NCBI GenBank assembly: GCA_035526825.1
Contig: DATLBT010000012.1
Coordinates: 1,414-65,413 of the forward strand
Direction of reading: 5' to 3'
Origin: Verrucomicrobiia bacterium
GTDB lineage: Bacteria > Pseudomonadota > Gammaproteobacteria > Nevskiales > Nevskiaceae
DNA: 64,000 nucleotides
Shown here: in pieces, positions 12,526 through 28,058 of the stretch
Layout of the letters: the number at the start of each line of letters is the position of its first letter
Numbering within the stretch: position 1 is the stretch's first letter
Notes under the pieces: generated by a model
What the model was told of the DNA's origin: nothing
Databases searched by the model: none
Seen by the model: only the letters and a program-made list of their open reading frames with translations
Position numbers and translations under genes: made by a program

Positions 12526-12607
12526 AGACGGTCAAAAGCAGGTAGTTTTGCCGCTTTTCGTGCCCGGGCGCGTAAGCTGACCTGAGCTCCCGCGGACAGG
12601 ACGGTCG

Positions 12608-13891
12608 GTGGTCAAGAAAGCCTACGAATGGAAGGCCGACGGCGCCCCCGCGCAAATCGCCCAGCACAGCGTCGCCAAGCACGAGGTCCTCAAGGCCTAC
12701 CTGCTCGAGTACCTGCAGACCCTGGTCAGCTCGCCGCACCAGGACACCATGCGCGTCACCCTCGTCGACGGTTTCGCCGGCGGCGGCGTCTACGACCACG
12801 AAGACACCGGCGAGCGCGTGCTCGGCTCCCCGTTCGCTTTCCTCAACACCGTGCGCGAAGCCGAAGCGCTGATGAGCCTGCAGCGCAATAAGCCGCTGCA
12901 GATGCTGGTGGACTACATCTTCGTCGAGAAAAACCGCGACGGCTTTGCCTCGCTGGAGAAAACCTTGCGCGAGGAAGGTTTCGGTGGGCGGTTCGGCACC
13001 GACATCCACCTGCACGCCGGCGGCTTTGAAGACTACGCGCAGAAGATCATCGAGTTCATCAAGAGCAAGAGCCCGCGTGCGGGCCGCTCGCTGTTCCTGC
13101 TCGACCAGTACGGTTACAAGGACGTGCCGCTGCCGCTGATCCGCAACATCCTCAGCGAACTGCCGCGCTCGGAGGTCATCCTGACCTTCGCGGTCGACTC
13201 CTTCATCAACTTCGTCAGCGACACCCCGCAATCGCGCAAGACCCTGCAGGCCATGGGCATCCCCAACGTGTTCCAGGGCCGCTCGGTGCGCGAGATCAAG
13301 GACAGTGAGCCAGAATTTCGCCTCTTCATCCAGAGCAGCCTCTACCGCAGCCTCATTGATGCGACGGGCGCCAAGTACTACACGGTGTTCTTCATCCGCA
13401 CGACCGGCCACGGCGACTACTGGCTGGTGCACCTGTCGCAGCACCCCCGCGCCCGCGACGTCATGACCGGCGTGCACTGGAAGAGCAACAACGACTTCTT
13501 GCACTACGGCGGCGCCGGTATCGACATGTTCCAAGGCGCGATGCTGGGTTACCAGACGCGCAAGGACGACGACTTCATGGGTCAGAGCGCCCTGCCCTTC
13601 GGCTTCGATGATCCCGCCGGCGAGGCGAGCATCAAGGCGCTGATGGAGCAGCTGCCGCGTCTCATCTACGCGCGCGAAGAAGGGCTGACCTTCGGTGAGT
13701 TGTTCGCCACAACCTGCAATACCTCGCCGGCTGATAGTGGCAAGTACAAGGACGCTCTCGGACGGCTGATCGAGCTCAAGGAGATCGACGCGTTCTCGAT
13801 CGACGGCAAGCGTCGCCTGAAGGCCACGACCTTGACCGACGCGGACCGGCTCACGCCGACCCGGCAATCGAAGCTGTTCTCGGGCGACTAG
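12608..13891 (+). CDS. tcmP: Three-Cys-motif partner protein TcmP
   Basis: It sits immediately downstream of the DUF5131 gene. The N-terminus (HSVAKHEVLKAYLLEYLQTL ... LVDGFAGGGVY) fits my recollection of the TcmP (TIGR04474) family, which is defined by this pairing. Confidence 0.65.
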   Translation: MVKKAYEWKADGAPAQIAQHSVAKHEVLKAYLLEYLQTLVSSPHQDTMRVTLVDGFAGGGVYDHEDTGERVLGSPFAFLNTVREAEALMSLQRNKPLQMLVDYIFVEKNRDGFASLEKTLREEGFGGRFGTDIHLHAGGFEDYAQKIIEFIKSKSPRAGRSLFLLDQYGYKDVPLPLIRNILSELPRSEVILTFAVDSFINFVSDTPQSRKTLQAMGIPNVFQGRSVREIKDSEPEFRLFIQSSLYRSLIDATGAKYYTVFFIRTTGHGDYWLVHLSQHPRARDVMTGVHWKSNNDFLHYGGAGIDMFQGAMLGYQTRKDDDFMGQSALPFGFDDPAGEASIKALMEQLPRLIYAREEGLTFGELFATTCNTSPADSGKYKDALGRLIELKEIDAFSIDGKRRLKATTLTDADRLTPTRQSKLFSGD

Positions 13892-14397
13892 TTGACCCAG
13901 ACCGCCTGCGCGACGCCCGGATCCGGGCCGACACGCAGCTCGATAAAGATCGCATGCACGTACTGCAGCCGCGGATCGTGCTTGTAGGCCTCCAGCTTCT
14001 GGAAGTCGACATGATCGTCCACCTGGCTGCTCGTCTTCTTAAATTCCATCACCAGGTAGTTGTCCGTGGTGTCACGGTGGTGAGCGATCACGTCCGGATA
14101 CACGGTCTTCCCATCGGTATCGGCGATGTCCCCTTGCAGTTCAAGCAGCTTAAGCCTTTCGAGCAGCATCATGATGCGCTTGGGGTCAGGCCCGTTGCGG
14201 TAGTACTCGCAGTCGACGTGCCAGTTGGGCAGCGCGGCTTGCAGGTACATGCCGAAGCGATGGGTCAGCGAGCGCTCGTTCGCGTCGACACGCAACAGGT
14301 GTTCGTCGCGCTCCAACAGGGCATTCAGTGCCTGCGCGATCGCCGCGCCGGGCTCGCGTTGCATAAGAATCTCGCGGATATCGTCGGAGATCGGCAT
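13888..14397 (-). CDS. Small PD-(D/E)XK nuclease-fold protein
   Basis: Candidate motif E (VDCEY) ... PD (VYPDVIAHH) ... ExK (LVMEFKK). Last gene of the minus-strand cluster headed by the Type IIG RM gene. Its 3' end overlaps TcmP by 4 nt (convergent). Confidence 0.55.
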   Translation of the reverse strand: MPISDDIREILMQREPGAAIAQALNALLERDEHLLRVDANERSLTHRFGMYLQAALPNWHVDCEYYRNGPDPKRIMMLLERLKLLELQGDIADTDGKTVYPDVIAHHRDTTDNYLVMEFKKTSSQVDDHVDFQKLEAYKHDPRLQYVHAIFIELRVGPDPGVAQAVWVN

Positions 14398-14790: not shown

Positions 14791-16368
14791 CTACTCGTAC
14801 CGCGACGCCGAATCCAGGCCCTTGCGGAAGCCCATCTTGCGCGTGACCGTGCCCGGGTAGCGCGGGCGAATGTTGCGCAGGAATGGGTCGGTCGCCAGAT
14901 CCTGCTGCAGGCTTGTGATGTCAGTCGAATCCAGACCCAGGCAACTACCGACTAATGCATCCAGCGCGGAGATCGCGTCGTCCATGGCTTGGGCCAGGGC
15001 CTGCTCTCCGTGCTCGGCCACCACCTCGCGCCAGCGGTCGCGCTCGGCCGCGGTTCCGGGAATAGGCAGGTTGAGCAGCACGCTCTTGGTGACTTCGTCG
15101 CCCACGCGCTGGCCCAGCGCCAAGGCCAGACCTTCGGCGATGTCTGGACGGTTGGAGTCGACCCAGTCGAACAAATCCGAAGAAAGCGACACGCGCACGC
15201 CTTCGTCCGTCGGCGCCACCGCGATTTCGGCGACTACGGCCTCGTAGCCGCCGTCGGAGAAGTTGTCTCCAAACACCACCCGTGCGTCGGCGTCGGCCTG
15301 CAGGCGTACCTTGACCGTGGCATATCCCAGCCCTGTCAGTGCGGCCCGCAGCGACTCGGCGGCGGCCAAGCGGTGAGTGCACGCGTCCACCACGGACGCT
15401 CGCATGGCTTCGATCTCGGCCGTTCGCGCGGCGAGCGCGTCATTCCACGGCAAGAACGCCAGGTTGGTGGGATACACGTGGCTGCGCTGTGTTCGAAGTA
15501 CGCCCATGCGCGCGGCCAGAGCATAGAACCAGACGTACACATTGGACAGCAGCAACAAGTCAAATGGAACGTGGGCCAATTCATCGCGCGGAAGCAGGAT
15601 CGTCGCGGTATTGGTGAACGATTGAGTCGCCGGATCAAACATCACCCCGTTGGGGCAATGCGCCATTGCCGCCACCGCCAAGCCACGTGCCGGATGGATG
15701 TTCCGGTAGCGCCACAGGCTGATGTCGTCGATTTCATCGAAGTCTGCGTTGGTCAGCGCCGGATCGCCTTGCAGCTCGGTGGCAATAATGTTTTCGCCCT
15801 TGAACACATCGATGCCGCCGGCGCGCTGCGCCTTGTTGCCACGGAAGGCGACGCCGCCGGCGACCATACGACGTAGCTCCCACAGCGCAGGCTGCGTCGG
15901 CGGCTGGTCAACCCACTCCACGATCTTGCTCTTGTCTTTTCGCACCCAGTACGGCTTGGCGACGTCAGCAAAGGTTTGCTGCTTCCAGAGTTTGCGCAGG
16001 ATAGCCAGCCGAGCGGGCGTCACTCGCGTGAGGATGCGTCCGTCCGGCGAGAACAGGTCCGCATACGGCACCACCGCTTCCGGTATTGCCGCCAAGTTAA
16101 ATTCGGGAAGCGAATCGGCGTCGTGCGGCAACACGCAGGACGGATCGGCGAAGCGAATCGAAACGCTGTCCTCGGTCGTGGCAGGCCGGTTCTCGACGAT
16201 AATGATCGCGGGCAGCACGTCGGCGTCGAATACCTGGCGATAGATGATCTCCAGGTCGATCAGTTCGCGGATGACCCAACGCCCGCCCGGTTCAAACAGC
16301 TTGCGCAGCGGTCCCGTCTCGTTACCGTCGAACAGCGACCGGCAGGATGAAACCGACTTTGCCGGCAT
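14791..16368 (-). CDS. Type IIG restriction-modification enzyme, C-terminal (target-recognition) portion, separated from the N-terminal part by a frameshift
   Basis: The frame begins inside the overlap with the upstream ORF. The sequence SLFDGNETGPLRKLF continues the methyltransferase domain that ends ...GKVGFILPV in the other frame. Confidence 0.7.
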   Translation of the reverse strand: MPAKSVSSCRSLFDGNETGPLRKLFEPGGRWVIRELIDLEIIYRQVFDADVLPAIIIVENRPATTEDSVSIRFADPSCVLPHDADSLPEFNLAAIPEAVVPYADLFSPDGRILTRVTPARLAILRKLWKQQTFADVAKPYWVRKDKSKIVEWVDQPPTQPALWELRRMVAGGVAFRGNKAQRAGGIDVFKGENIIATELQGDPALTNADFDEIDDISLWRYRNIHPARGLAVAAMAHCPNGVMFDPATQSFTNTATILLPRDELAHVPFDLLLLSNVYVWFYALAARMGVLRTQRSHVYPTNLAFLPWNDALAARTAEIEAMRASVVDACTHRLAAAESLRAALTGLGYATVKVRLQADADARVVFGDNFSDGGYEAVVAEIAVAPTDEGVRVSLSSDLFDWVDSNRPDIAEGLALALGQRVGDEVTKSVLLNLPIPGTAAERDRWREVVAEHGEQALAQAMDDAISALDALVGSCLGLDSTDITSLQQDLATDPFLRNIRPRYPGTVTRKMGFRKGLDSASRYE

Positions 16369-18262
16369 TCCCCTGCTCGTCCGGCGGCCGCGCCCAGCGA
16401 TCCAGGGCGCGATACAGGAACAACGCGTAGGCGTTGAGCTTGCTTGACACGCCAGGGAAATTGGCGCGACCCCGTTCGAATTCTTTCTGCGAGCGCGGAT
16501 CTAGGGCTTGGGCACTGCGCTCGGAACGCACATACGGTGGATTGCCCACGACCGCGTCGTAGTCGGCCTGATCGATCTCTGAGAATCGGTCCAGCGCGCT
16601 CCATTGATCGCGCTCCACGAGCGAGTTGACCTTGGCCGTGACCAGGACGTCCGGGAAGCCCTGCTTCTCGATCTCGTCCTTCATAGAGAGGATCTGCCAG
16701 AGCATCTGGATTTGGGTCAGCACCGCCGAGAAGGTGTTTAGATCGTTGCCGGCGATGCGGGAGAACGTGGCCAGCACGTCGGAGTATTCGGCCGCACCGC
16801 GTTCCACGTCGTTGCCGACCATGACGCGGTAACTCTCGATCAAAAAAGTACCCGAGCCGCAGGCCGGGTCGAGCACCCGACTATCGCGGGTGACGCCCAT
16901 GCGCTCAATCATGTAACGCGCGATCGACGGCGGCGTGTAGAACTCGCCCAGCTTCTTGCGCTGGTCGCGATCCATGAAGCGGTCGTAGATACCGGTCAGG
17001 ATGTCGCCGCGGATCGTGGTGAAGTCCGGTCGGGCGAACCGGAACAGCGTCAGCTCGATGGCACTGGAGAGCGCCTCATCCTGTGCGCCAAAGATCCAGT
17101 CCAGTTCGGTCGCCTCGAACGCGGTCGCGTACAACCGGCTGCCTTCCTTATAGGCGTGCTCGAGAAGTTCGGAGTAACTGGACTTGAAGTAGCTGCGCAT
17201 GTTCTGGAACGCAGCCACACCGCCGTTGCAGACATAGCGGGTGTCGCCGAAGAACTTGTGGTCCTCGAAAAAACGCAGCAATAGGACGCGAGCTAGGATC
17301 AGGTTCGCTGTTTCGATGGCGAACAGCTCCTTGAGCTTGGCGTCCTCCACGCCGGTTCGTGCCTGGAACTCCGGCAATCCGCTGACTGCTAGGCGCGCCA
17401 CGTGAGGCGATTTGCTGAAGGCGCGTTTGAGCTTCGCCGAGTCGCGATCGTGCTTTCGCACCGCCTCGGGACCCATGGGCGCGCCGCGCAACGACAAGGC
17501 ATGCGTGTCGAAGCCATCGTCGGTCTTGCCGAACTCAGCCCAGAATTCCTGCGCGGCCGCAGCAAAGGTCTTGATCTCCGGTTCCAGGCGATTGAAGGCG
17601 CCAAGAACGGCCGACTGCAGGTGGACGGTGGACTCGCGGATTTGCTGGAAGAAGCGCTTGCGGTTCAGGCGTACGCGGTTGACCAGACGCTTGGTCGGCG
17701 TCGGATCGGTGATCGACAGCTTCTCGATGGCGATCATCGAGGTATCGCCGGCACGGAAGCGCTCGAGCTGGACCGACACGCCCGCGCGGCTGGCCAGCAA
17801 AGCGACCGCGATTTCCTTGAGCTGGGGCTCGGTCAGCCCTGCGGTGTCGATCTCGATGTCGGCATCGGCGGTGAGCACCCCACCGCCCACCGCGCGCAGC
17901 ACCCAGAAGTCGGGCTCGACCATGACGAACCAAGCCGTATGGGCACCGACGTACTTGGCCTTCTTCTCGAAGATCGCTTCCCGCTTGGCCGGGTCGCGAA
18001 AACTGCCGTGTTCGTCCTTGGCCTCGACCACAACCCAGTCGATGCGGGCCAGCTTGCCGCTCGCGTCCTTAAACCCCGCGGGTGCACGAACCGTGACATC
18101 CGGTCGGCCCCCTTCGCCGGTGGTATCGATATCGACGTCGGCGGCCAGGTACCCCAGCACATGCACGAACACGTCGCGGATCGGCCCATACATCGACGCC
18201 TCTTTGCCAGGCGGCGTGCTCTTCAGCTTCGCAAGGGTGTCCGCAAACGAAAATTTCGCCAT
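16322..18262 (-). CDS. Type IIG (MmeI-like) restriction-modification enzyme, N-terminal endonuclease plus N6-adenine methyltransferase portion
   Basis: N-terminal PD-ExK motif (GGRPDVTVRAP ... DWVVVEAKD). Gamma-class MTase motifs: motif I RVLDPACGSGTFL and motif IV VVGNPPY. The likely start is the ATG at 18262 (MAKFSFADTL). The ORF ends prematurely at 16322. Confidence 0.8.
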   Translation of the reverse strand: MAKFSFADTLAKLKSTPPGKEASMYGPIRDVFVHVLGYLAADVDIDTTGEGGRPDVTVRAPAGFKDASGKLARIDWVVVEAKDEHGSFRDPAKREAIFEKKAKYVGAHTAWFVMVEPDFWVLRAVGGGVLTADADIEIDTAGLTEPQLKEIAVALLASRAGVSVQLERFRAGDTSMIAIEKLSITDPTPTKRLVNRVRLNRKRFFQQIRESTVHLQSAVLGAFNRLEPEIKTFAAAAQEFWAEFGKTDDGFDTHALSLRGAPMGPEAVRKHDRDSAKLKRAFSKSPHVARLAVSGLPEFQARTGVEDAKLKELFAIETANLILARVLLLRFFEDHKFFGDTRYVCNGGVAAFQNMRSYFKSSYSELLEHAYKEGSRLYATAFEATELDWIFGAQDEALSSAIELTLFRFARPDFTTIRGDILTGIYDRFMDRDQRKKLGEFYTPPSIARYMIERMGVTRDSRVLDPACGSGTFLIESYRVMVGNDVERGAAEYSDVLATFSRIAGNDLNTFSAVLTQIQMLWQILSMKDEIEKQGFPDVLVTAKVNSLVERDQWSALDRFSEIDQADYDAVVGNPPYVRSERSAQALDPRSQKEFERGRANFPGVSSKLNAYALFLYRALDRWARPPDEQGNAGKVGFILPVAVRR

Positions 18263-18474
18263 TCGTCCCGCCAGAAGTGGATGCCAGGCGCCGCGCAACC
18301 GGCGCCCTCCCCCATACGGTTTCCCGCGTTCCGTACTGAAGCCTAACCAGAATAACTGGTTACGTCGGTTTTGAGGGGACGTCCCCCAGGAATTTGAGCG
18401 GCGCATTCCAGCCAGCCCCTTGTCCTGCACCCAAGCGCCTCCGCGTCTAGCCAGCGGCCTGAGGAGAGCAGCGG

Positions 18475-18756
18475 ATGACGGTCGAATCGACCCGCATGGA
18501 CATCGAGGAGCCGGTCGAGTTTCCTATGCTCGACGCCCGCACTTATGAAGAAGCCTTGGCCGAGATGGAGGGCATCCCGCCCAATCAGTATCGCAAGGAG
18601 GCCGACGACGCGCGCAACAGCGAGTTTGCCGACGTGCTGCCGACGTGGAGCCGCTCTCCTCTTCGCACGAGGCTGGTGTTTCTTGCGATAACTACGCGGC
18701 GCCAGAACGAGGCGGCCTCCACACCGCCGTCACTCGACTTTAGCTGCCCGTCGTGA
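18475..18756 (+). CDS. Hypothetical acidic small protein
   Basis: The ATG follows GAGGAG by 8 nt. The first ~55 residues look protein-like (MTVESTRMDIEEPVEFPMLDARTYEEALAEMEGIPPNQYRKEADDARNSEF). The C-terminal part is low quality, so it may be truncated. Confidence 0.3.
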   Translation: MTVESTRMDIEEPVEFPMLDARTYEEALAEMEGIPPNQYRKEADDARNSEFADVLPTWSRSPLRTRLVFLAITTRRQNEAASTPPSLDFSCPS

Positions 18757-18813
18757 GCTCAGGCGACAGTTGTGCCATCGTCTCGCCCTGCAGGTGACAG
18801 GATCGCCACCCCA

Positions 18814-19314
18814 TCAGCGGGGAGGATCGAAGACGCGTAGCGTCACGGCCATCGGTGTTCGACGGGTCAGCCAACGCTTCGGCCCCAACGTGAACCCCGC
18901 GAGCGTCCAGGATTCCGGCGAACCGGCGGCAACGAGCATCAACGGGTTCTCGCATCGCGCAGACCTCGCGCGTGCGATGGCACGCAGCGTACGCACATCC
19001 AATGCGCTTAGGCCCGCGACGCCGTTGGGATGGGTATGCCAGTCGCCCAGGTAGCCGAACCGCCCTTCCGACTCGGCGTAAACGCGCGCCATCTCGGCGG
19101 CGTGGTAAGGCCCGTCCGGCGTAAACGACATCGGCGTGCTCGTCGAGGCCGCCCCCGGCCCGATCAGCACCGCGACGACGGCATCCACTCCGTTCTGGTA
19201 GCCAGTGAGGATGCCGCCGACTTCATCGGGATAGACTCGCGATGCATGCGCCAACAGGTCATCGCGCAGCGGACCGGCCAACCACAGGCGCTCAATGATT
19301 GGGGCACGCGGCAT
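18814..19314 (-). CDS. JAB/MPN (JAMM) metallopeptidase, Cap3-like
   Basis: JAMM motif: Glu in YPDEVGGILTG, then GDWHTHPNGVAGLSALD (H-x-H-x7-S-x2-D). Overlaps the 3' end of the E2-E1 gene by 23 nt. Confidence 0.8.
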   Translation of the reverse strand: MPRAPIIERLWLAGPLRDDLLAHASRVYPDEVGGILTGYQNGVDAVVAVLIGPGAASTSTPMSFTPDGPYHAAEMARVYAESEGRFGYLGDWHTHPNGVAGLSALDVRTLRAIARARSARCENPLMLVAAGSPESWTLAGFTLGPKRWLTRRTPMAVTLRVFDPPR

Positions 19315-21019
19315 GGGGCGCCAAGGTATGCGGGGTCCACACCGGGAGCTGCGGTCTCCCGTGGTCGTCGCGCAGGCGCAACGTCGCCAGATTCCATCGG
19401 TGCGCGCGCTGCGCGTGGGCGCCCACGCGGTGGAGCACGGCGTCCAGCGTGGCTCGCGCGCCCATCAGTGACACCTCCATCAAATCCGCCTGCGCGCCGA
19501 CGAAGGTGGGGTCCATGCAACCGGCCGGTTGCACGAACTCGGCCTCGGGCGCGGCGGCCAGCGGCGGGACCGGTCCCTGGGTCTCATTGAGATAGTGCAG
19601 GTGGCACTCCCAGCAAAAGTCTTCCTGGTTCGGACCGGCGTAGCCCACCAGCCCACCCCACGCGCCGTTGGTGGCATGCGCCCAGAGGTAGGGAATTCCC
19701 CGACGCCGGGCCTGCTCTGACAAGAAGTGGGCGACGCGCACCGAAGCGCTCGTATCGAGCAGGCACGATACGTCGCGAAACATCAGATCTTGGATCTGGC
19801 GTTCCTCAGGGGTGCCTGCCATCGACGCGTCACCCAGTCGCGCATGCGCGATTCCGACCCGGCAGTAGGGAAAATGCTGACTCAAATGGGACTGCAGGAC
19901 TTGCACCTTGGAATACCCCGCCGCGCCCCGACCGAGCTCCCAGCGGATGGCGTTGCCGGCATCCAGGACATCGTGGTCAATCAGTCGCAGCCGTCCCAAG
20001 CCGGCCTGCGCCATCAGCTTCGCCGCCGGTGAGCCGACGCTGCCAGCTCCGATCTGGCACACGATGCCTTGCTGCAGTCCGCTTGCCGCGGGATCGCGTA
20101 CGAAGTAGTGCTGCTGGCTCTCCAACTCCGCCCGATTCACTCGAGTAAGGACCTTGCGCTGCGCCTCACTCGCGGCCTTCGGTTCGTGGCTCTTGCTGAC
20201 GAGGATCACGTTGCCGCCCCACCCCTGCCACGCGAGCTCGTCCTGAAATAGCAACGCAACCAAATCCACGCGAGCGCCGGTGCCGCCAGGCAGTGCCTGC
20301 CAGGACGGACGCTCCAGGCTCGGGACTTCGGCCGCTGCCAACGCGTAGTAGGCCTTGGCATCGAGCATCTCCGGCCGCGTCCCAAGCCGGATCCAGCGCC
20401 CCGTGACGATCGGCAAGCCGCGTTCCTCGAACGTCGGCCCCGCAGTCGCATCCGCCGACGCAATCACCTGGCCATGGCTATCGAGCACCTGAAAAACGGT
20501 GCCGCGAAGCGGCCTCACCGACTCCAGGACGGCGCGAAATGTCCCGGTCGGTGTCAGTGCGGCAAAAGCGTAGGCCGGAAAGCCGACGAACGACCCCGGG
20601 TCAAAGGTGATGTATCCCGTAATGGGGACGCCTTCGTGCGCCTCGTGATCACCCGCGATCGCTTCGTTACCCGGCTGGCTGGCGAAGACGTGAGGCAACT
20701 GGGACAGCAACAGGCCGGCCAGCGTGTCGGTGCCCGGCTGCCACTCGTCTCCGCCGCGGCGCAACAGGCACAGCATCTTTGAACCGGGCGTCTGGTGGCG
20801 AACCAGAGCGAGATCCGGGGCGGCCACCGCGGGCGGAAACGAGGGATAGTCCGACGGAAAATGCGCGATCAGTCGGTGTCGCTGACCGTCCAGTTCCAGC
20901 TCCAACTTCAAGCGCATGAGGTCCGCCACCGGCTCGCGCTCGTAGCGGATCCTTGCTTGTTCCAGGGCTTGCTGTTCGCTAGCCCATCGGCCGGGGTCGC
21001 GCTCCCACCACCCGGCCAT
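19292..21019 (-). CDS. E2 (UBC-like) - E1 (ThiF/MoeB adenylation) fusion protein, Cap2-like
   Basis: The E2 segment (HFPSDYPSFPPAV ... GSKMLCLLRRGGDEWQPGTDTLAGLL) parallels eukaryotic FPxDYPFxPPKV ... ICLDIL..W.P, including the catalytic Cys. The E1 Rossmann motif is IGAGSVGSPAAKLMAQAGLGRLRLIDHDVLDAGNAIR. A Cys cluster FCWECH is present. Confidence 0.8.
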   Translation of the reverse strand: MAGWWERDPGRWASEQQALEQARIRYEREPVADLMRLKLELELDGQRHRLIAHFPSDYPSFPPAVAAPDLALVRHQTPGSKMLCLLRRGGDEWQPGTDTLAGLLLSQLPHVFASQPGNEAIAGDHEAHEGVPITGYITFDPGSFVGFPAYAFAALTPTGTFRAVLESVRPLRGTVFQVLDSHGQVIASADATAGPTFEERGLPIVTGRWIRLGTRPEMLDAKAYYALAAAEVPSLERPSWQALPGGTGARVDLVALLFQDELAWQGWGGNVILVSKSHEPKAASEAQRKVLTRVNRAELESQQHYFVRDPAASGLQQGIVCQIGAGSVGSPAAKLMAQAGLGRLRLIDHDVLDAGNAIRWELGRGAAGYSKVQVLQSHLSQHFPYCRVGIAHARLGDASMAGTPEERQIQDLMFRDVSCLLDTSASVRVAHFLSEQARRRGIPYLWAHATNGAWGGLVGYAGPNQEDFCWECHLHYLNETQGPVPPLAAAPEAEFVQPAGCMDPTFVGAQADLMEVSLMGARATLDAVLHRVGAHAQRAHRWNLATLRLRDDHGRPQLPVWTPHTLAPHAACPNH

Positions 21020-21025
21020 GCCCGG

Positions 21026-21154
21026 TCAGCCGACCGGACGGTGGCCGGGCGGCACCGGGGGATTGTGGGGCGGACGGTTGTCCGGAGGGCCCGGCGGTAC
21101 GTTGGGGTGCTCCGGGTGCGGCGGGTGGTCGGGGTGTTCGGGACGCTGGGGCAT
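21026..21154 (-). CDS. 42-aa Pro/His-rich micro-ORF ending in Gly, translationally adjacent to the E2-E1 gene
   Basis: Sequence is MPQRPEHPDHPPHPEHPNVPPGPPDNRPPHNPPVPPGHRPVG. AGGAG lies 8 nt upstream of the ATG (AGGAGTGACAGCTATG). The TGA stop is 6 nt before the E2-E1 ATG. Nearly all third codon positions are G/C, as in neighbouring genes. It could still be a non-coding leader. Confidence 0.4.
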   Translation of the reverse strand: MPQRPEHPDHPPHPEHPNVPPGPPDNRPPHNPPVPPGHRPVG

Positions 21155-21275
21155 AGCTGTCACTCCTACTCGGTTGAATCTGTGGGGAGTCCGAGATGTT
21201 GGGTGGGTTCGTTGCACGCCACACAACATGTTCGGGCGAGGCCAAATTAGCACTCGATGGTGCCTTCTGCCAAGT

Positions 21276-21320
21276 AGATTCTAACATGAACACGGATATA
21301 GAAACTTGCCTTTAGAATTC
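21276..21320. promoter_or_regulatory. AT-rich divergent promoter region with an inverted repeat (candidate WYL-regulator operator)
   Basis: ATTCTAA (21278-21284) and TTAGAAT (21312-21318) form a perfect 7-bp inverted repeat within the ~200-bp AT-rich gap between the micro-ORF/E2-E1 operon and the WYL gene. Confidence 0.35.
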
Positions 21321-21357
21321 ATTCATACTTACTTTCTTACCTCGCCGCGAAACCGCT

Positions 21358-22251
21358 ATGGCCGAGCACCGCCCTGCCCCTCCGCGCTGGGGCCAGCTCC
21401 AGCGCTACGTCTTCCTCGAGCACCGCCTGTTCTGGGAGGGATGGATCAGCCGAGCCGACCTGATGGACCGTTTCGCGATCTCGGCGCCACAAGCCTCGGA
21501 AGACATCGCCAACTACCTGGAGAAATTTCCAGACAGCCTCGAGTACGACCGGAGTCGAAAGGCCTACAGCCCGACGTCGGCGTTCTCGCCCCGCTACTTC
21601 AAGCCCAATGCGCGCCAGTACTTGACCCAGCTGCTCCTGGTGGCCGACGAAGCGATCGCATCCGAGGATTCCTGGCTCGGGTTGATTCCGATGCACCAGG
21701 CCATGCCGCGCCTACGTCGACGCCTCGACGTGGACACACTGCGTCCGGTCATCACGGCGATGCATCAACGGCGCGCGGTAGAAGTCGTTTACCAGTCGAT
21801 GTCGACTCCGGACCCAACACGGCGCTGGATCGCCCCACACGCGCTGATTTACGACGGCGCGCGCTGGCACGCGCGATCCTGGTGTTTCAATCGTTCGTCG
21901 TTTGTCGACTTTGTGCTCGCGCGATTCATTGCGGTCGGCGAAACGCGCCATGCCGGCATTGACCCCACGCTGGATCGCGAATGGCAGGAGTCCTTCACCG
22001 TCGAACTCGCCCCCAATCCCTCTTTGACCGGGCCGCAGCGGCAGGTCGTGGAGATGGATTACGGCATGGAAGACGGCATCCTCCGCGTGCCCATGCGCCT
22101 GTGCATGACCTATTACTTTGAGCGCCATTTCGGACTCGATCTGCCCAGCGACCTTCTTCCGGCCTCCCGCTGCCAAGTGGTCATGCAGAATCGATCCGAG
22201 CTGGAACAGGTCCGCGCGATCATTGGCGCGAGAACCGAACTGAGCCCATGA
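21358..22251 (+). CDS. WYL-domain transcriptional regulator (CapW/BrxR-like)
   Basis: N-terminal wHTH (ISRADLMDRFAISAPQASEDIANYLEKFP). WYL-type segment (RRWIAPHALIYDGARWHARSWCFNRSSFVDFVLARFIAV). Divergent from the E2-E1/JAB operon. Confidence 0.75.
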   Translation: MAEHRPAPPRWGQLQRYVFLEHRLFWEGWISRADLMDRFAISAPQASEDIANYLEKFPDSLEYDRSRKAYSPTSAFSPRYFKPNARQYLTQLLLVADEAIASEDSWLGLIPMHQAMPRLRRRLDVDTLRPVITAMHQRRAVEVVYQSMSTPDPTRRWIAPHALIYDGARWHARSWCFNRSSFVDFVLARFIAVGETRHAGIDPTLDREWQESFTVELAPNPSLTGPQRQVVEMDYGMEDGILRVPMRLCMTYYFERHFGLDLPSDLLPASRCQVVMQNRSELEQVRAIIGARTELSP

Positions 22252-22379
22252 GACTGGCGAGCGCGAGCCGGCGTCCGCTAGGCACGATTGGGCGATATGT
22301 GTCGGCAAGTCGCCGCCGCAGCGCCTAAGCGAAAACTGCGCCCTTTCTGGCGCTGTGTTTCTGGGTATCGTCCACGTTC

Positions 22380-22841
22380 TCAGTGGCAGCTGTCGCGCTC
22401 CACGCCACCGAGATCGTCGAGAATCGGGCAGTCCGGTCGCTGGTCGCCGTGGCAATGTTTGGCCAGGTTCTCGAGCGTGCGTTGCATCGCCTGCAGTTCG
22501 CGCACCTTCTGCGCCAGCTCGTCGGCATGTGCCTTGGCGAGCTTCTTGACCTGGGCGCTGGCGCGCCCCGGGTTGTTCCACAGGCCGAGCAGCGCCTCGA
22601 TCTGCTTCATCGAGAACCCGAGGTTGCGCGATCGCTTGATGAAGCGAAGCCGGTGGATGTCGGCATCGTTGTAGAGCCGGTAGTTGGCGAACGTGCGACT
22701 GGCAGCGGGGATCAGGCCGATGCCTTCGTAGTGCCGGATCATCTTCGACGACACGCCGGTGAGCTCGGAGGCCTCGCCGATGTTGTGGAAGCCCTGCTCG
22801 CGGGCTTCGTACATCTCGGGGCGGATGACATGACGAGCCAT
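22380..22841 (-). CDS. cueR: MerR-family Cu(I)-responsive regulator CueR
   Basis: MerR HTH (FHNIGEASELTGVSSKMIRHYEGIGLIP) and a C-terminal Cys-x8-Cys metal loop (CHGDQRPDCP). Immediately downstream of copA. Confidence 0.85.
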   Translation of the reverse strand: MARHVIRPEMYEAREQGFHNIGEASELTGVSSKMIRHYEGIGLIPAASRTFANYRLYNDADIHRLRFIKRSRNLGFSMKQIEALLGLWNNPGRASAQVKKLAKAHADELAQKVRELQAMQRTLENLAKHCHGDQRPDCPILDDLGGVERDSCH

Positions 22842-22853
22842 GGGAATCCTCCT

Positions 22854-25292
22854 TCAGGCGACCAGGTTGGGCTGCCAGCGGCGCAGCAACAGGGTATTGG
22901 CGATCACGCCCACGCTGGAAAAGGCCATTGCGGCGCCCGCGAAGACGGGGTCAAGCAGACCTGCGGCAGCCAATGGAATGCCGACCAGGTTGTAGATGAA
23001 AGCCCAGAACAGGTTCTGCCAGATCTTGCGCGTCGTGCGGCGGGAAATATCGATGGCGGCCGGCATCAGGCGCGGGTCTGAGCGCATGAGCGTCACGCCC
23101 GCGGTCTGCATCGCCACGTCGGTGCCGCTGCCCATTGCGATGCCAACGTCGGCGGCAGCCAGCGCTGGCGCGTCGTTGATGCCATCCCCGATCATCGCCA
23201 CACGACCCTCGGCGCCCAGCTGGCGCACGACGTCGGCCTTGTCGCCGGGCAGCACATTCGCGTGGACATCGGCGGGCGCAAAGCCGAGCGTCTTCGCCAC
23301 GGAGGCCGCAGCGCCGGCGTTGTCGCCGGTCAGCATCACCGTGCGCAGGCCCATCGCCTGCAATGCGGCAACGGCCGCAACGCTTTCGGGACGGGGCTGA
23401 TCACCGAAGGCAAGGATGCCGAGCGCAACGATGCCCTGGCCGCGATCCTGCGCGACCCACGACACGGTGCGGCCCTGGGCCTCGTTGAGATCCGCGGCGC
23501 CCTGCAGCGGCCCGATGTCGACGCCGAGCTCGTCCATCAGGCGCCGGCTACCCAACCAGGTGGGACGACCGCCCACCTCGCCCTTCAGGCCGCGGCCCGG
23601 AAGAGCGGTGATGTCGGCGGCCGCGTCATTGCGCACGCCGGCCGTCTCGGCGGACGCGAGTACCGCACGTGCCAGCGGATGCTCGCTGCCCGCCTGCAGA
23701 GCGGCCGCGATCGCGAGCAGGCCCGTCGTGTCGTCGTCGGCCGCATCCACGTCCACGAGCGTCGGCTTGCCCACCGTCAACGTGCCGGTCTTGTCGAAGG
23801 CCACGGTGCGGACATTGCGCAGCGTCTCAAGCGCTTCGGCATCGCGGATGAGGATGCCGGCGCGTGCGGCGACACCGGTGCCGGCCATGATCGCGGTCGG
23901 CGTGGCAAGGCCCAGCGCGCACGGGCATGCGATGACGAGCACGGCCACCGCATTCAACGTCGCCTGGCTCCAATCCCCGCTCGTCAGGCCCCAGCCGATC
24001 CAGGTCAACGCAGCAATGCCGATGACGATCGGCACGAAGATGCCACTGACCTTGTCGACCAGGCGCTGGATTGGCGCCTTCTTCGCCTGCGCGTCCTCCA
24101 CCAGGCGGATGATGTGCGCCAGCGCGCTCTCGGCGCCGACCGCACGCGTGCGCAGTTGCTGGCGGCCTTCGGCATTGATGGCGCCGCCAGTGACCTTGTC
24201 GCCCGGCTCCTTGGCGACGGGCAAGGATTCGCCAGTGAGCATCGACTCGTCGTGGTGACTGCGGCCGTCGACGACCTCACCATCGACCGGGACTCGCTCG
24301 CCCGGCAACACGACGACGAGATCGCCCACCTGCACGCGACCGATCGGGACTTCCTGTTCCTCGCCCTCGACGACAACCCGCGCCGTCTGCGGCCGCAGTG
24401 CCTGCAACGCGCGCAACGCGGCCGTGGTCTGACGCTTGGCGCGCGCATCGAGCCATTTGCCCAGCAGCACGAGCGCGATGACCAGCGAGGCGGCTTCGAA
24501 ATACGTTTCTGCGGCGGCTCCGGCGAACACGTGATAGACGCTGAGTCCGTAGCCGGCACTGGTGCCCAGGGCAACGAGCAGATCCATGTTGCCGGTGCGC
24601 GCCTTCAGAGCCTTCCAGGCGGCCCGGTAGAAGCGCGCGCCCAGCCAGAACTGCACTGGCGTGGCGAGTGCGAGCTGCACGAGGCCCGGCAGCATCCAGT
24701 GCTCGCCGAAGATTGCGCCGATCATCGGCAGGCCGAGCGGAATCGACAGTGCGAGCGCGATCAATGCATGGCGCAACCCCTGGCTCGCGTGGGCCGTGGC
24801 CGACGCCTCGGCCGCTGCTGAGGCGGAACCGGCGTCGTCGTCGCGATCCTGCGGTCGCGCGTCGTAGCCGGCGCTCTTGACCGCCTCGACAAGCGCCTGT
24901 GGCGTGGTCGTAGCATCCATCCGGACGCGGGCCAGACCGGTGGCGAGGTTGACGCTGGCGTCCTGCACGCCGGGCACGGCATGCAGCGCCTTTTCGACGC
25001 GGTTGACGCACGACGCGCAGGTTATGCCCTCGATCACTAGCGATGCTTCGATGGGCGCCACCGAATAGCCCGCGGCTTGCACGGCCTTCGCGACCTCCGC
25101 GGCAGGCACGTAGCCATCGGTGCGCACGTCCGCCGTTTCGGTGGCGAGATTGACGGTCGCGGCGAGTACGCCCGGCATCCTGGCGAGGGCCTTCTCGACC
25201 CGACCTACGCACGACGCGCAGGTCATGCCTTCCACACCGAAGCGGAAGCGCGTTGCGGCGTCCTGGGCTGGGATCGACAGTGTGGCGTTCAT
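22854..25292 (-). CDS. copA: Copper-translocating P1B-type ATPase CopA
   Basis: Two N-terminal HMA domains ([15 protein letters not shown]; [15 protein letters not shown]). CPC in the transmembrane region, DKTGTLT phosphorylation site, GDGINDAP. The ATG at 25292 follows GGAG. An alternative upstream ATG lies at 25304. Confidence 0.95.
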
Positions 25293-25319
25293 GGCGGACT
25301 CCAAATGGGATTACCCAGG

Positions 25320-25350
25320 AGCTTCGGGCTTCCCACCATGGGAAGGTCAA
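25320..25350 (-). promoter_or_regulatory. MerR/CueR-type promoter of copA (19-bp spacer with dyad operator)
   Basis: The minus strand reads TTGACC-TTCCCATGGTGGGAAGCCC-GAAGCT. The dyad CTTCCCA/TGGGAAG lies in the 19-nt spacer. The architecture mirrors E. coli PcopA (TTGACCTTCCCCTTGCTGGAAGGTTTAACCT). Confidence 0.65.
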
Positions 25351-25363
25351 CGTGAAGCGGACG

Positions 25364-25474
25364 CTAGCGTTCGGCGCGGCGCAGCGCCAGCAGGAACAGG
25401 CCTACGACGAGCAATGCCAGCGGTCGGTCGAGCCGGTCGAGGGCGGATTGGAACCGGTGGGTGACAGTGGCCAT
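25364..25474 (-). CDS. Possible 36-aa hydrophobic micro-protein between the two copA-proximal CueR-type promoters
   Basis: MATVTHRFQSALDRLDRPLALLVVGLFLLALRRAER. It sits about 30 nt downstream of the second CueR-type promoter. No clear RBS, so this is speculative. Confidence 0.2.
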   Translation of the reverse strand: MATVTHRFQSALDRLDRPLALLVVGLFLLALRRAER

Positions 25475-25502
25475 GGTGGCGTTCTCGGGTCGGGGGAGCG
25501 CC

Positions 25503-25533
25503 AGCCTCACGACTCCCACCGTGGGAAAGTCCA
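25503..25533 (-). promoter_or_regulatory. Second MerR/CueR-type promoter-like element
   Basis: The minus strand reads TGGACT-TTCCCACGGTGGGAGTCGT-GAGGCT. It has the same 19-nt spacing and the dyad TCCCAC/GTGGGA. Confidence 0.5.
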
Positions 25534-25759
25534 GTGCCATCAAGGCTTGAGCTTGCCCCCGGTCAAGCTTCAACGTGCCGACCTCCGATGCCGCTGCTCC
25601 CTCAGCGCGCAGACCCGCCCCGGGGGTTGGCACCATTCGACGTCATCCCCCGCGTCGACGCCGGCCGTGCCGGGGCTTCTTCACAACAGAGAGTTGAACC
25701 GGGCCGCAGCAAGCGCCACTCTTCGTGTCGGTATTCGAGGCAATTACGCGGGGATATGC

Positions 25760-26725
25760 ATGCGGAATGGCCCACTTCAAACGAATCTGCTCTGCAGCCT
25801 ATTAGCAGTCATGCTCCTGGCGAGCGCGGCGAGCGCTCAGGAGAACGCGGCTCTCGTGTACTCAGACGCCACTAGACCTACTAGCGGTGCGGAGAATGCA
25901 GCGTTCGTTTGGCACCCGACCGACAAGGAGTTGCTCGCTTTCCAAGCAGCGCGGCTTGATGCGGACGCCCGATTCCTTCTGCTCAAAAGGCAGCGCGACG
26001 CAGGTCTCATCGACAAGGCGACGTTTGAACTGGCATCCGAGCAACATGCTCGTGCGTCCAATGCCTACTTCACCCTGGTGGATCGAGGAGGTCAGATTTC
26101 AGCCGCTAGTGCGAACAACTACCTGACGGACCTCTTCTTGTTCACCGCATCGCCGCGCAGCGTTGGCGGGCCTTCGGTTCTTTCTGCGGCGCTTATTAGT
26201 CGCGGAGAAGACGGGGCAATTCGAGTCGACGCCGACTCGCTTCAGACCAGCCTGGAGAATCGCTTCCAGCAACTCCGGGGCGACATTCCAATCGAAAGCG
26301 ATGCTCGCCCCCTCAATGCATACCTCGATGAGCTCAAAACGAGCTCAACAGAAGCCGTAGATACCAGCCGAGGACAAGATGGGTTCGTTTCTTTCCAGCG
26401 TGCGATCGAGATTGCCACCCCGGTGCAGCAATATCAGTTGACGCTGATGAGGGCCTCGCCTTGGCAGTTGCATCTCTCCCTTCGCACGACACCCTCACAA
26501 GCGAGCGTTGTATTCACTACTCCCAGTGGGTACAGGGCCGATTTCACAACAAATACATCACGAACGACAATGCGTGGACTTGTCGACTACACGGTACAAA
26601 AAGCCGGATACAAGACGATTCGCGCTTCGAATCTAGACTTGGTCAATGCCGTGGAAGGCACATTTTCTTGTGTGCTGATTCCTGTCGCAGACCAGCAGCC
26701 CGCCCAAGCCTGCAATATTCGATAA
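25760..26725 (+). CDS. Secreted hypothetical protein (signal peptide; possible PEGA-like C-terminal beta domain)
   Basis: MRNGPLQTNLLCSLLAVMLLASAASAQ is a signal peptide. GC is visibly lower than the flanks. The upstream part of the 25253 ORF is an unlikely extension. Confidence 0.55.
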   Translation: MRNGPLQTNLLCSLLAVMLLASAASAQENAALVYSDATRPTSGAENAAFVWHPTDKELLAFQAARLDADARFLLLKRQRDAGLIDKATFELASEQHARASNAYFTLVDRGGQISAASANNYLTDLFLFTASPRSVGGPSVLSAALISRGEDGAIRVDADSLQTSLENRFQQLRGDIPIESDARPLNAYLDELKTSSTEAVDTSRGQDGFVSFQRAIEIATPVQQYQLTLMRASPWQLHLSLRTTPSQASVVFTTPSGYRADFTTNTSRTTMRGLVDYTVQKAGYKTIRASNLDLVNAVEGTFSCVLIPVADQQPAQACNIR

Positions 26726-26728
26726 AAC

Positions 26729-27328
26729 ATGACTCAGTCCCCATCTCGATCAGGAACTGCTGCAAAGTGGGGGCGAGTGCTGCTCGCAATCGGCGTCACG
26801 ATCCCAATTGGCCTCGCGCCGTTGCTGGGAACATGGGACGTTCCTGGGTTCCGCGCCTTGCTCTCCCTGTTCCCAGAAGGCCTTCAGGAATCATCCATCC
26901 GCTTTTCCACATTCGGAATGGCGGTCGTGGCGGCAAGCGTGCAATTTCTGTCTCAGGATACCTTCACTCGCAAAACGCTGAGACAAACATTCATTGGCGT
27001 AGTGGTCGCATTGTTCGCATTATTGTTCCTTCTCGCCAAATCCCACAACGAGCATGTCGTTCGAATTCCAGTAGGAGACGGTAGCGTGTCTGTTTCTTAC
27101 GTCGTCGGCTCGGAGCGAAAAGTGGGCTGTAGCTGTGCGGCTTCTGAAGGTGACGCACAATGCGTGAAGAGGATTGGGCTTGATGCTGCTCTCCTTCCGA
27201 GTTGCTGGAACGAGAAGGAGCTCAGGGGCATTGCATTTGCGCTTCAGGCCAAATACGTCTTGTTGATGATTGGGCTGGGCGCGCTTGTAGGCCTGATCGT
27301 CTTGGCCCCTGCGCGAAGTCGCCGATAG
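26729..27328 (+). CDS. Hypothetical integral membrane protein
   Basis: Starts 4 nt after the previous gene. Several hydrophobic helices (VLLAIGVTIPIGLAPLL; FIGVVVALFALLFLLA; YVLLMIGLGALVGLIVLA) and a Cys-rich loop (CSCAASEGDAQC). Lower GC. Confidence 0.55.
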   Translation: MTQSPSRSGTAAKWGRVLLAIGVTIPIGLAPLLGTWDVPGFRALLSLFPEGLQESSIRFSTFGMAVVAASVQFLSQDTFTRKTLRQTFIGVVVALFALLFLLAKSHNEHVVRIPVGDGSVSVSYVVGSERKVGCSCAASEGDAQCVKRIGLDAALLPSCWNEKELRGIAFALQAKYVLLMIGLGALVGLIVLAPARSRR

Positions 27329-27359
27329 CCAAAGGGTTATTTCCGTCGCTAAGGGCGAC

Positions 27360-27390
27360 TTGACCTTCCCACAGGGGTAAGCCCCAACCT
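27360..27390 (+). promoter_or_regulatory. MerR/CueR-type promoter of copZ
   Basis: TTGACC-TTCCCACAGGGGTAAGCCC-CAACCT. 19-nt spacer. Very close to E. coli PcopA, whose -35 is TTGACC and -10 is TAACCT. Confidence 0.65.
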
Positions 27391-27422
27391 GCTTCGCATG
27401 TCCACCATCGAGGCGAAGACGT

Positions 27423-27629
27423 ATGCGCTTTTGCGTTGAAAGCATGACCTGCGGCCACTGTGACCGCACCATCCGCAAGGCGATTTCGGCGCTGTCGCCG
27501 CAGGCGACCGTCATCATCGACTTGCGCGCCAAGACCGTCGAGATCGACGGCGCGCTTACTGCAGTGCAAGTCGTCGCTGCGCTCGCCGATGAAGGCTATT
27601 CGGCGGTGCAAACCAGCGAAATGGCCTGA
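27423..27629 (+). CDS. copZ: HMA-domain copper chaperone CopZ
   Basis: 68-aa protein with a MTCGHC metal-binding motif (MRFCVESMTCGHCDRTIRKAI). Confidence 0.8.
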   Translation: MRFCVESMTCGHCDRTIRKAISALSPQATVIIDLRAKTVEIDGALTAVQVVAALADEGYSAVQTSEMA

Positions 27630-27647
27630 GGCCGCGCTCGAGGCAGG

Positions 27648-27685
27648 AAAGAGGCCAGCCCTTGCGGCTGGCCTCTTCGTTTTTG
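27648..27685. terminator. Bidirectional rho-independent terminator between copZ and cusF
   Basis: Perfect 12-bp stem AAGAGGCCAGCC / GGCTGGCCTCTT with a 5-nt loop (CTTGC), followed by CGTTTTT. Confidence 0.8.
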
Positions 27686-27686
27686 G

Positions 27687-28058
27687 TCACTGCTTGGTGA
27701 TAGAGACGATCGTGCCGTCCATGCCGGTCGAGTCGAATTCGAAAGTGACGTTGTCGCCCGCCTTGATTGCCGACAAGTCCGTGTTCGGAGCCTGGAACGC
27801 CATCGTCATGCCGGGCCAGCCGAGTGCGTCGACGGGGCCGTGCGCGATGGTGATCGTCTTCGCTGTCGCGTCGATGGATTCCACGACGCCCGTGGCCGTG
27901 GCGCGCTTGGATTCCGCTGGCGCGGGAGGTGGGGTCGCCGGCGACGCGGGCTCGGCGGCCGCAGGTGCAGGTGCTTGCGCGGCTGGCACGGCCGGCTCCG
28001 GAGTGCGGTTGCAGCCGGCAATGCTCAACACGGCAAGAAGAAGGACGAAACGCTTCAT
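27687..28058 (-). CDS. cusF: Periplasmic Cu(I)/Ag(I)-binding lipoprotein CusF
   Basis: Lipobox LSIAGC, Pro/Ala-rich linker, and a CusF fold segment ([33 protein letters not shown]). The cusA stop overlaps its start (ATGA). Confidence 0.75.

Follow-up and report, generated by a model that had tools for sequence, protein, structure and literature searches.

A conserved micro-gene for a proline-rich peptide next to a Cap2-like E2-E1 fusion and a JAB peptidase gene: a candidate tagging module without a cyclase

Introduction

To our knowledge, every modifier handled by activating (E1) and conjugating (E2) enzymes has a beta-grasp fold, the sole exception being the tail of the CD-NTase (a nucleotidyltransferase of the cGAS/DncV-like kind) in CBASS (antiphage signaling based on cyclic oligonucleotides). 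The bacterial tag Pup, which is intrinsically disordered and 64 aa in length, is joined via its C-terminal residue, and its ligation by the glutamine-synthetase-like PafA uses a side-chain carboxylate after deamidation and no E1/E2 thioester. In the Bil system, conjugation to a phage tail protein is the defense output (PMC11601603), and the 6A-MBL system has been reported to be anti-phage. An enzyme pair of the kind treated here was seen before by Iyer et al. (2006), where row 6b lists two members, without a peptide (PMC1779556). Here we describe such a pair, a Cap2-like E2-linker-E1 fusion and a Cap3-like JAB peptidase, in a 64,000-nt stretch of contig DATLBT010000012.1 (the window), where a micro-gene for a Pro/His-rich peptide precedes the fusion gene and a gene for a CapW/BrxR-type repressor diverges from it. 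The contig is labeled as a Verrucomicrobiae metagenome-assembled genome, and the nearest genome homologs are Xanthomonadales-type bacteria. No description of the cyclase-less subgroup together with the peptide was found in the literature searched.

Results

The proline-rich micro-gene

In the initial annotation, which was made from the sequence alone, the slot directly upstream of the E2-E1 gene was read as empty apart from a 42-codon open reading frame (ORF). That ORF is indeed present, AGGAG preceding its start codon by 8 nt and a 6-nt gap separating its TGA from the E2-E1 ATG, but the slot is not empty, as a same-strand ORF of 40-69 codons immediately precedes the E2-E1 gene in 29/29 distinct loci, that is, in all those with sequence upstream of E2-E1. 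These loci (relatives' loci are labeled with L-numbers, family representatives with P-numbers) come from Noviluteimonas gilva, Dyella lutea, five Sinorhizobium/Ensifer genomes, and metagenome contigs, and from annotated plasmids of Arthrobacter sp. FB24, Hymenobacter, Indioceanicola, S. fredii NGR234, Sphingobium, and Iamia, with four more distant family representatives added to the set. The peptide ORF occurs in Gamma- and Alphaproteobacteria, Actinomycetota, Bacteroidota, and metagenomes. The distance between the peptide stop and the E2-E1 start ranges from -8 to +6 nt across loci; a Shine-Dalgarno (SD)-like 4-mer is found upstream of the peptide ORF in 19 of 25 loci.

The peptides can be aligned over their whole length of 40-69 aa, with a mean proline content of 38% and 0-1 hydrophobic residues. 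Their layout usually consists of an N-terminal (HPx)n stretch, followed by a near-invariant VPPGPP and a C-terminal PPxPPxHRPVG. The last residue is Gly in 24/29 peptides and Ala in 5/29, the small C-terminal residue typical of ubiquitin-like modifiers; the 24 include two homologs with a dipeptide beyond the Gly, Hymenobacter (...DRPVG-QQ) and L047 (...HRPVG-TA). The C-terminal pentapeptide is HRPVG/A in 25/29 peptides, with PRPVG, DRPVG, PRQVG, and PKHVG making up the rest. The C-terminal ~12 residues are the best conserved, and RPVG-type ends are kept at an E2-E1 identity of only 26-31% (Arthrobacter, Hymenobacter, Sinorhizobium, Indioceanicola, and Iamia). In a coding test of 190 pairwise comparisons, the nonsynonymous (pN) and synonymous (pS) divergences were 0.22 and 0.69 (pN/pS ~0.32), with pN below pS in 190/190 pairs, and this relation was reversed in both shifted frames of the peptide ORF. 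Invariant peptide residues use 2-4 synonymous codons, such as GTA, GTC, GTG, and GTT for Val and CGA, CGC, CGG, and CGT for Arg. Because pN is lower than pS in all pairs and only in the proposed frame, and because conserved residues are written in synonymous codons, the micro-ORF is a protein-coding gene under purifying selection at the amino acid level.

Because no SD of its own for E2-E1 is present in the 3' end of the micro-ORF and the E2-E1 start abuts the peptide stop, translation of E2-E1 is probably coupled to that of the peptide gene, in which case the peptide would be made in at least equimolar amounts with the enzyme. In the window (21019..21154, reverse strand), the E2-E1 ATG is in frame with the peptide ORF and its stop codon (...RPVG-TGA-CCG-GGC-ATG...). 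Stop read-through fusing the peptide to E2-E1 was considered and rejected on the varying spacing among the loci, and the shared frame in the window is probably incidental.

In the HPxHPxHP stretch a His recurs at every third residue, in the window as H7, H10, H13, and H16 (residues 7-17, 21104..21136, reverse strand), which in a polyproline-II helix (3 residues to the turn) would set all His of this ladder on one face. A His ladder was also seen in L040, L049, and L050, with PHPPHPPHPPHPPHP in L049. The peptides of L010, Iamia, Indioceanicola, and Hymenobacter have almost no His and lack the ladder, and since several clades are without it, the ladder is not essential to the family.

Only 3 such peptides were found among 5.8 billion protein clusters in a word-indexed protein search. 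Annotation of the peptide is rare, examples being a hypothetical protein on the Hymenobacter plasmid and gene calls on contigs L046 and L049, and because the gene is unannotated in nearly every record, protein-catalog surveys are blind to the peptide. An N-terminal extension of at least 25 aa is present on E2-E1 in 7/150 family representatives; in P0056, P0058, P0104, P0109, P0156, and P0158 the extensions are 50-60 aa long and rich in Arg, Ala, Ser, and Thr. Comparison of P0109 with its DNA (L050) places the peptide ORF inside the annotated E2-E1 gene, in a different frame. The extensions that were examined resemble translations of the peptide gene in a wrong frame, a systematic annotation error by which the micro-gene is concealed.

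The E2-E1 fusion enzyme and the JAB peptidase

The family libraries Pfam, PADLOC, and NCBIfam were run on the window ORFs. For the E2-E1 protein, Pfam returned ThiF (1.5e-15) and a weak Prok-E2_B match (0.0036) under the cut-off, PADLOC returned its "E1-E2" models (best 8.8e-33, 112 bits), and the best NCBIfam model was NF058523 "cap2_3" (6A-MBL), which matched the E1 part with 80.8 bits against a cut-off of 320. The profile of the E2-E1 family matched Cap2 (7TSQ, 1e-12) across the E1 part and human UBE2L3 (1.5e-5) across residues 9-124. The AlphaFold2 (AF2) model has a mean predicted local distance difference test score of 81.6, and its best full-length fold match is E. cloacae Cap2 (7TO3_A, E 3.6e-20); UBA5, ThiF, MoeB, ATG7, BubCD, and MccB match the E1 half only, and both MccB and PaaA turned up when the E1 domain was matched by sequence and fold. 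The E2 domain contains the motif FPSDYPSFPP, a His 9 residues ahead of the catalytic Cys, and a Trp after it.

Family size was determined by an exhaustive hidden Markov model search with 50%-identity clusters as representatives, which yielded 874 representatives at E <= 1e-30; when a diverse E2-E1 alignment served as the query of a word-indexed protein search, only the close clade was recovered. The best 150 of the 874 representatives are all full length, at >=377 bits, and in these 150 the residues H75, C84, W93, G326, G329, R359, K371, C469, C472, C501, and C572 are invariant, with one exception each for G324 and D422. Because of this number of representatives, and because the best 150 are full length with invariant or nearly invariant catalytic and zinc-binding residues, E2-E1 appears to be a large, active enzyme family and not a decaying remnant. 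On the Iamia plasmid (L045, 4889..6687), E2-E1 is annotated as two ThiF-family coding sequences (4889..6019 and 6016..6687), a split that is probably due to a frameshift; the JAB match of this locus is likewise in two pieces.

The JAB protein matched Prok-JAB (2e-12) and JAB (5.8e-5) in Pfam and JAB in PADLOC (2.5e-23). Because it scores 51 bits with the NCBIfam Cap3 model, for which the cut-off is 200, it is classed from its sequence as a Cap3 homolog and not as an equivalog. Its JAMM motif is complete (E31, H93-x-H95-x7-S103-x2-D106), with HxH-x7-S-x2-D encoded at 18997..19038. By tblastn, E2-E1 is immediately followed by a JAB homolog in all loci reaching beyond the E2-E1 gene, except L046.

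These results bear out what the initial annotation had said of the enzymes, in each detail open to checking. Its claim of an E2-E1 fusion agrees with Pfam, PADLOC, the family profile, and the AF2 fold matches, the last of which include the full-length match to Cap2, and the motifs it quoted were all found (FPSDYPSFPPAV, HQ..., LC84LL, W93, and GAGSVGSPAA). The complete JAMM motif and the overlap of the JAB and E2-E1 genes are as described there. Its Cap2/Cap3-like and CapW-like assignments were right, as judged by the fold, the Prok-JAB match, and the CapW match given below, and, as it had stated, no cyclase, beta-grasp ubiquitin-like protein (Ubl), or known effector was found among the neighboring ORFs with the three libraries.

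The regulator and the promoter region

The WYL protein matched WYL in Pfam (5e-11), and phmmer against the PDB gave CapW 9C5G (5.9e-60), S. maltophilia CapW 7TB6 (6.8e-56), and BrxR 7T8K (1.5e-39), the CapW/BrxR matches being full length (residues ~10-285). Its ATG is 203 nt from the micro-ORF ATG and 338 nt from the E2-E1 ATG, in line with the divergent placement about 200 bp away that was first noted. In most loci of the close clade, a WYL ortholog with 38-46% identity is found in this divergent place as well. CapW-like genes cluster in 11/24 loci compared, L018, L024, L034, and L047 also carry one, and this type of regulator belongs to the gammaproteobacterial clade and L047. Other regulators are found elsewhere: AraC in Sinorhizobium, and in the distant locus L035 an M78/IrrE-type peptidase gene, the class of the CapH+CapP regulators. 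In NGR234 and Sphingobium, a divergent pair of RES-domain toxin and Xre-MbcA-ParS antitoxin genes lies directly upstream of the peptide gene, at the position that capW has in the window; a similar pair is located a few kb off the module in L015 (197..1311). No regulator was recognized in the remaining loci.

In the homologous intergenic regions, which are ~100 nt long, a conserved TTGAC...17 nt...TATAGT promoter is overlapped by a palindrome over the -10 element (in L014 at 7928-7967, with 20-nt arms, 85%), and CapW operators sit at this position (PMC9122588). The winged helix-turn-helix (wHTH)-WYL-WCX architecture, the divergent orientation, and the palindrome over TATAGT in homologous loci are those of CapW/BrxR proteins, and DNA binding is predicted. 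The window region is ~100 nt longer than its homologs; only the right half-site AAGTTTCTATAT (~21296..21307) is recognizable there, and the region has an 11-nt inverted repeat (21196-21206 / 21219-21229). Rfam, applied to 18300..22400, gave only a spurious sub-threshold match to a long non-coding RNA.

Boundaries and genomic context of the module

All-against-all comparison of the flanking ORFs of 24 loci returned three recurrent genes, namely E2-E1 (24), JAB, and the CapW-like regulator, and no other flanking gene was common to more than 4 loci. A conserved four-gene module is almost certain. The WYL regulator is not a defining part of it, as recurrence is limited to the peptide, E2-E1, and JAB, regulators and flanks vary, and the other clades have the AraC gene, the M78/IrrE-like gene, or no recognizable regulator. 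The neighborhood survey found 28/29 distinct loci without a cyclase; only L008 has SMODS genes nearby. In that locus (10448..14088), two pairs of SLATT and SMODS genes (CD-NTase-like, one with AGS-C) lie directly 3' of JAB on the same strand, and a caspase-like (Peptidase_C14) gene and a metallo-beta-lactamase (MBL) gene lie upstream of capW. The SLATT/SMODS genes were rejected as parts of the system, since they occur in this one locus, which also has the peptide. An MBL gene is near the module only in L008/L009 and Sphingobium.

The flanks across loci comprise Wadjet JetABC, DUF2779, SbcCD-like, restriction-modification (RM), SLFN_AlbA_2, SIR2-like, helicase, integrase, KfrA, MobA, RES-Xre, PD-Lambda-3_A, and metal-resistance genes. 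Around the window module (Table 1), the RM-type and integrase genes of the initial annotation are present, and a copper-resistance cluster on the other side, which it did not mention, has to be added. KfrA-like genes are also found beside the module in L002 and L008. A second ORF (14791..16368, reverse strand), with no family match, overlaps the N6-methyltransferase (MTase) gene by 47 nt; the split may reflect a sequencing error or a pseudogene with a frameshift, or else an enzyme of two subunits. Many other flanking window ORFs had no PADLOC or Pfam match, and several of these were wrong-strand ORFs in GC-rich DNA.

Table 1. Positions of the module genes, their domains, and neighboring features (window coordinates unless a locus is named)
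Feature	Position	Strand	Remarks
JAMM/JAB gene, Cap3-like	18814..19314	-	166 aa; 23-nt overlap with the 3' end of the E2-E1 gene
E2-linker-E1 fusion gene	19292..21019	-	575 aa; Cap2-like fold
E1 adenylation domain	19295..20122	-	~aa 300-575; crossover-loop Cys501 at 19517..19519
E2 domain	20675..21019	-	~aa 1-115; catalytic Cys84 at 20768..20770
Zn site of E2-E1			C469/C472/C572/H575
Micro-gene for Pro/His-rich peptide	21026..21154	-	42 aa, MPQRPEHPDHPPHPEHPNVPPGPPDNRPPHNPPVPPGHRPVG; proposed modifier, activation at C-terminal Gly42
Divergent intergenic/promoter region	21155..21357	.	203 nt; AGGAG at 21163..21167 (-)
capW/brxR-type wHTH-WYL-WCX repressor gene	21358..22251	+	297 aa; divergent from operon
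KfrA_N protein	9615..10490	-	
Tyrosine integrase	10599..11690	+	
DUF5131	11776..12525	+	4e-111
GMT-wHTH protein	12608..13891	+	
PD-Lambda-3_A homolog	13888..14397	-	5.5e-53
N6-MTase/type IIG-like gene	16322..18430	-	N6_Mtase, Eco57I, and MmeI_Mtase matches; NPPY motif
MerR/CueR-like gene	22380..22841		copper cluster (22380..31213)
CopA-like P-type ATPase gene	22854..25304		copper cluster
CusA-type resistance-nodulation-division (RND) gene	28055..31213		copper cluster
RES-Xre pair, L042 (pNGR234a)	3594..4679		
RES-Xre pair, L044 (Sphingobium)	4618..5705		

Discussion

We consider it probable that the peptide is the conjugated modifier of a self-contained tagging system. A complete E1-to-E2 relay needs a partner with a free small C-terminal residue, which the peptide would provide, and its gene, the best conserved of the system's accessory genes, sits where CBASS has the gene for the Cap2 substrate. 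Since the adenylation site of Cap2 holds only the last ~7 C-terminal residues of its substrate (10.1101/2022.03.31.486616), the peptide would suffice as a substrate of the E1 domain. The existence of E1-like enzymes that act on short ribosomal peptides (MccB and PaaA) points the same way, as do the ends DRPVG-QQ and HRPVG-TA, which resemble Ubl precursors matured by an isopeptidase. Being short and Pro-rich with next to no hydrophobic residues, the peptide is incompatible with a beta-grasp fold. The fuller statement, in which a disordered Pro-rich peptide of this size range, often with a His ladder, is conjugated by E1-to-E2 thioester chemistry and removed by JAB, on mobile elements in at least four phyla, is held with slightly less confidence, a little above even.

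In the proposed mechanism, the CapW/BrxR-type repressor would, by analogy with CapW biology, silence the divergent operon until stress or infection is signaled, whereupon the first gene of the operon would give rise to the intrinsically disordered Pro-rich peptide ending in ...HRPVG. The E1 domain would bind the C-terminal tail and adenylate Gly42, and the peptide would be carried as a thioester, first on the crossover-loop Cys501 and then on Cys84 of the E2 domain, before its transfer to an amine of a target protein, probably that of a lysine. This relay is inferred from the invariance of the catalytic residues, from the chemistry of Cap2, and from the fact that, of the conserved partners, the peptide alone has a free Gly/Ala C-terminus. 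JAB would remove the tag and would also mature precursors with residues after the Gly. Because no effector gene is conserved, tagging would in itself constitute the output, as it does in Bil. The function is most likely an anti-phage or stress-related one because of the mobile-element and defense-island context and the CapW/CapP-type regulators; going by regulator type and context, we give such a function about an even chance.

Several observations weigh against the tagging interpretation or against its role in defense. Among viral contigs and phage records there are no E2-E1 homologs. No PADLOC or Pfam effector family adjoins the window module, and no E3 or target was identified. The module abuts Cu/heavy-metal genes in four unrelated replicons (the window, L040 from Arthrobacter FB24, L041 from Hymenobacter, and L044 from Sphingobium), a neighborhood that may either stem from cargo common to mobile elements or point to a functional tie to the His-rich peptide. 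In the window, a consensus scan of the promoter region found no sigma-70 site, and the conserved promoter and most of the palindrome are missing; because this region is longer than, and diverged from, the family consensus, the window copy may be regulated differently and is only putatively expressed. Finally, conserved C-terminal residues beside the stop would be expected of a ribosome-arrest peptide too, and PPG, PPP, and PPD are pause motifs at which ribosomes depend on elongation factor P.

The last two points belong to the strongest rival explanation, which we regard as unlikely, namely that the micro-ORF is a cis-acting leader (an upstream ORF) in which polyproline stalling at VPPGPP and PPxPP, relieved only with sufficient elongation factor P and translation capacity, gates E2-E1 and JAB by termination-reinitiation, the true substrate being encoded elsewhere or phage-borne. 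The closeness of the peptide stop to the E2-E1 start, the lack of a separate SD for E2-E1, and the fact that the best conserved C-terminal residues would be those inside the exit tunnel are all consistent with a leader. Such a role does not account for Pro-richness and purifying selection along the whole peptide in four phyla, however, nor for a terminal residue that is always Gly or Ala, as an E1 requires, and the residues QQ and TA after the Gly in two homologs shift the motif relative to the stop. The ORFs also leave no space between them in which a regulatory RNA could fold, and with the peptide as a leader the system would be without a conserved substrate although its catalytic residues are invariant. 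Leader and tag roles could coexist.

A second possibility, improbable in our estimation, is that the peptide is a precursor of the kind found among ribosomally synthesized and post-translationally modified peptides, whose C-terminus is adenylated by the E1 domain, as MccB does with MccA and PaaA with PaaP, to give a modified or exported bioactive peptide. Pro-rich peptides can be antimicrobial, MccB and PaaA are relatives of the E1 domain in sequence and fold, and in microcin C clusters, too, the peptide gene directly precedes the E1-like gene. For C-terminal adenylation, however, the invariant Cys, His, and Trp of the E2 domain and the isopeptidase would be superfluous, the C-terminus is Gly/Ala and not Asn, the N-terminal part of the enzyme is a UBC fold and not an MccB-type peptide clamp, and the flanking-ORF comparison found no conserved exporter, immunity, or tailoring gene.

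Marginally less probable again is a role in copper or metal homeostasis, with the His-ladder peptide serving as a metal-binding tag or chaperone under metal stress. The window module adjoins MerR/CueR, CopA, and CusA genes, the plasmid copies of Arthrobacter FB24, Hymenobacter, and Sphingobium lie among Cu/Cd/RND resistance genes, and the His of HPxHPxHP would share one polyproline-II face. Against this, most loci have no metal genes, several peptides are nearly free of His, as described above, the regulators are of the CapW/BrxR, AraC, and M78 types and not metal sensors, and defense and metal cargo both gather on the same mobile elements.

The remaining alternative, raised in the initial annotation, is a decayed or truncated type II CBASS, a remnant with Cap2, Cap3, and CapW but minus CD-NTase and effector, which has a negligible chance of being right and is refuted by the survey of 29 distinct loci and by residue invariance: the enzymes and regulator are indeed homologous to those of CBASS, row 6b of Iyer et al. 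(2006) puts the E2+E1/JAB genes of the NGR234a plasmid and Arthrobacter sp. with nucleotidyltransferase operons (PMC1779556), and L008 has its SLATT/SMODS genes downstream, but the cyclase-less layout recurs in 28 further loci spread over at least four phyla, the family comprises 150 or more 50%-identity clusters that are full length with catalytic residues invariant or nearly so, the slot upstream of E2-E1 holds a conserved, selected gene, and the E2 domain retains canonical motifs reportedly missing from Cap2. The same recurrence and invariance support the other alternative offered there, a distinct ubiquitin-like conjugation system.

If the tagging interpretation is true, E1/E2 machinery would need only a C-terminal tail, and the definition of ubiquitin-like tagging would widen to include a ubiquitin system without a ubiquitin fold. 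It would also account for a set of "orphan" Cap2/Cap3 pairs, grouped with CBASS ever since 2006, for which a candidate for the missing substrate lay in plain view, and it would provide a minimal, compact tagging system of ~2.4 kb with potential use as a tool.

Comparison with known systems

Among systems with short or unusual partners, Pup is the functional precedent for a modifier without a beta-grasp fold, but it has no sequence similarity to the peptide described here. Microcin C (MccA/MccB) and pantocin (PaaP/PaaA) share with our locus an E1/ThiF-like enzyme and a short ribosomal peptide encoded just upstream; in contrast, they have no E2 or isopeptidase, the C-terminal Asn or internal residues are modified, and the product is an exported antibiotic, and the C-terminal Asn, peptide clamp, and export genes of microcin C are all absent here. 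The Bub system (6E/DUF6527) resembles the locus through the E2-E1 fusion of type II BubBD and the frequent control by CapW/BrxR or CapH+CapP, but it works with Ser/oxyester intermediates, a beta-grasp BubA, and a DUF6527 serine protease, usually without a JAB, whereas here Cys84 and Cys501 are invariant, a JAB is present, and there is no Ubl. In 6A-MBL (row 6a of Iyer et al., 2006; NF058523), which is likewise Cap2-like and cyclase-less with related E2 and E1 domains, E2, E1, and JAB form a triple fusion with an MBL partner, in contrast to the separate JAB gene and the lack of a conserved MBL seen here.

The closest likenesses are to type II CBASS and Bil. As in type II CBASS, E2, linker, and E1 form one chain, followed by a JAB gene and accompanied by a divergent gene for a CapW homolog, and the Cap2 substrate, too, is recognized by a flexible tail ending in Gly/Ala and not by a beta-grasp Ubl. 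The fold match to 7TO3_A and the invariance of C84 and C501 place the fusion enzyme with Cap2. Unlike type II CBASS, no window ORF matches SMODS/CD-NTase, no gene for a cyclic-nucleotide effector is present, the upstream slot is taken by the Pro-rich peptide gene, and the scores with the PADLOC E1-E2 and NCBIfam Cap3 models are low. According to Ledvina et al., Cap2 has neither the HPN motif nor the Trp nor the Pro-rich motif of E2 enzymes, and with FPxxYPxxPP, a His before the Cys, and a Trp after it, the E2 domain of our protein is closer to canonical eukaryotic E2s than to Cap2. Like Bil (BilABCD), the locus combines a free-standing candidate modifier with E1, E2, and JAB and has no separate effector; Bil differs in its beta-grasp Ubl (BilA) and separate E1 and E2, compared with the fused E2-E1 and the absence of a beta-grasp ORF here. 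The system would work like Cap2/Cap3 of CBASS and like Bil and is a member of neither.

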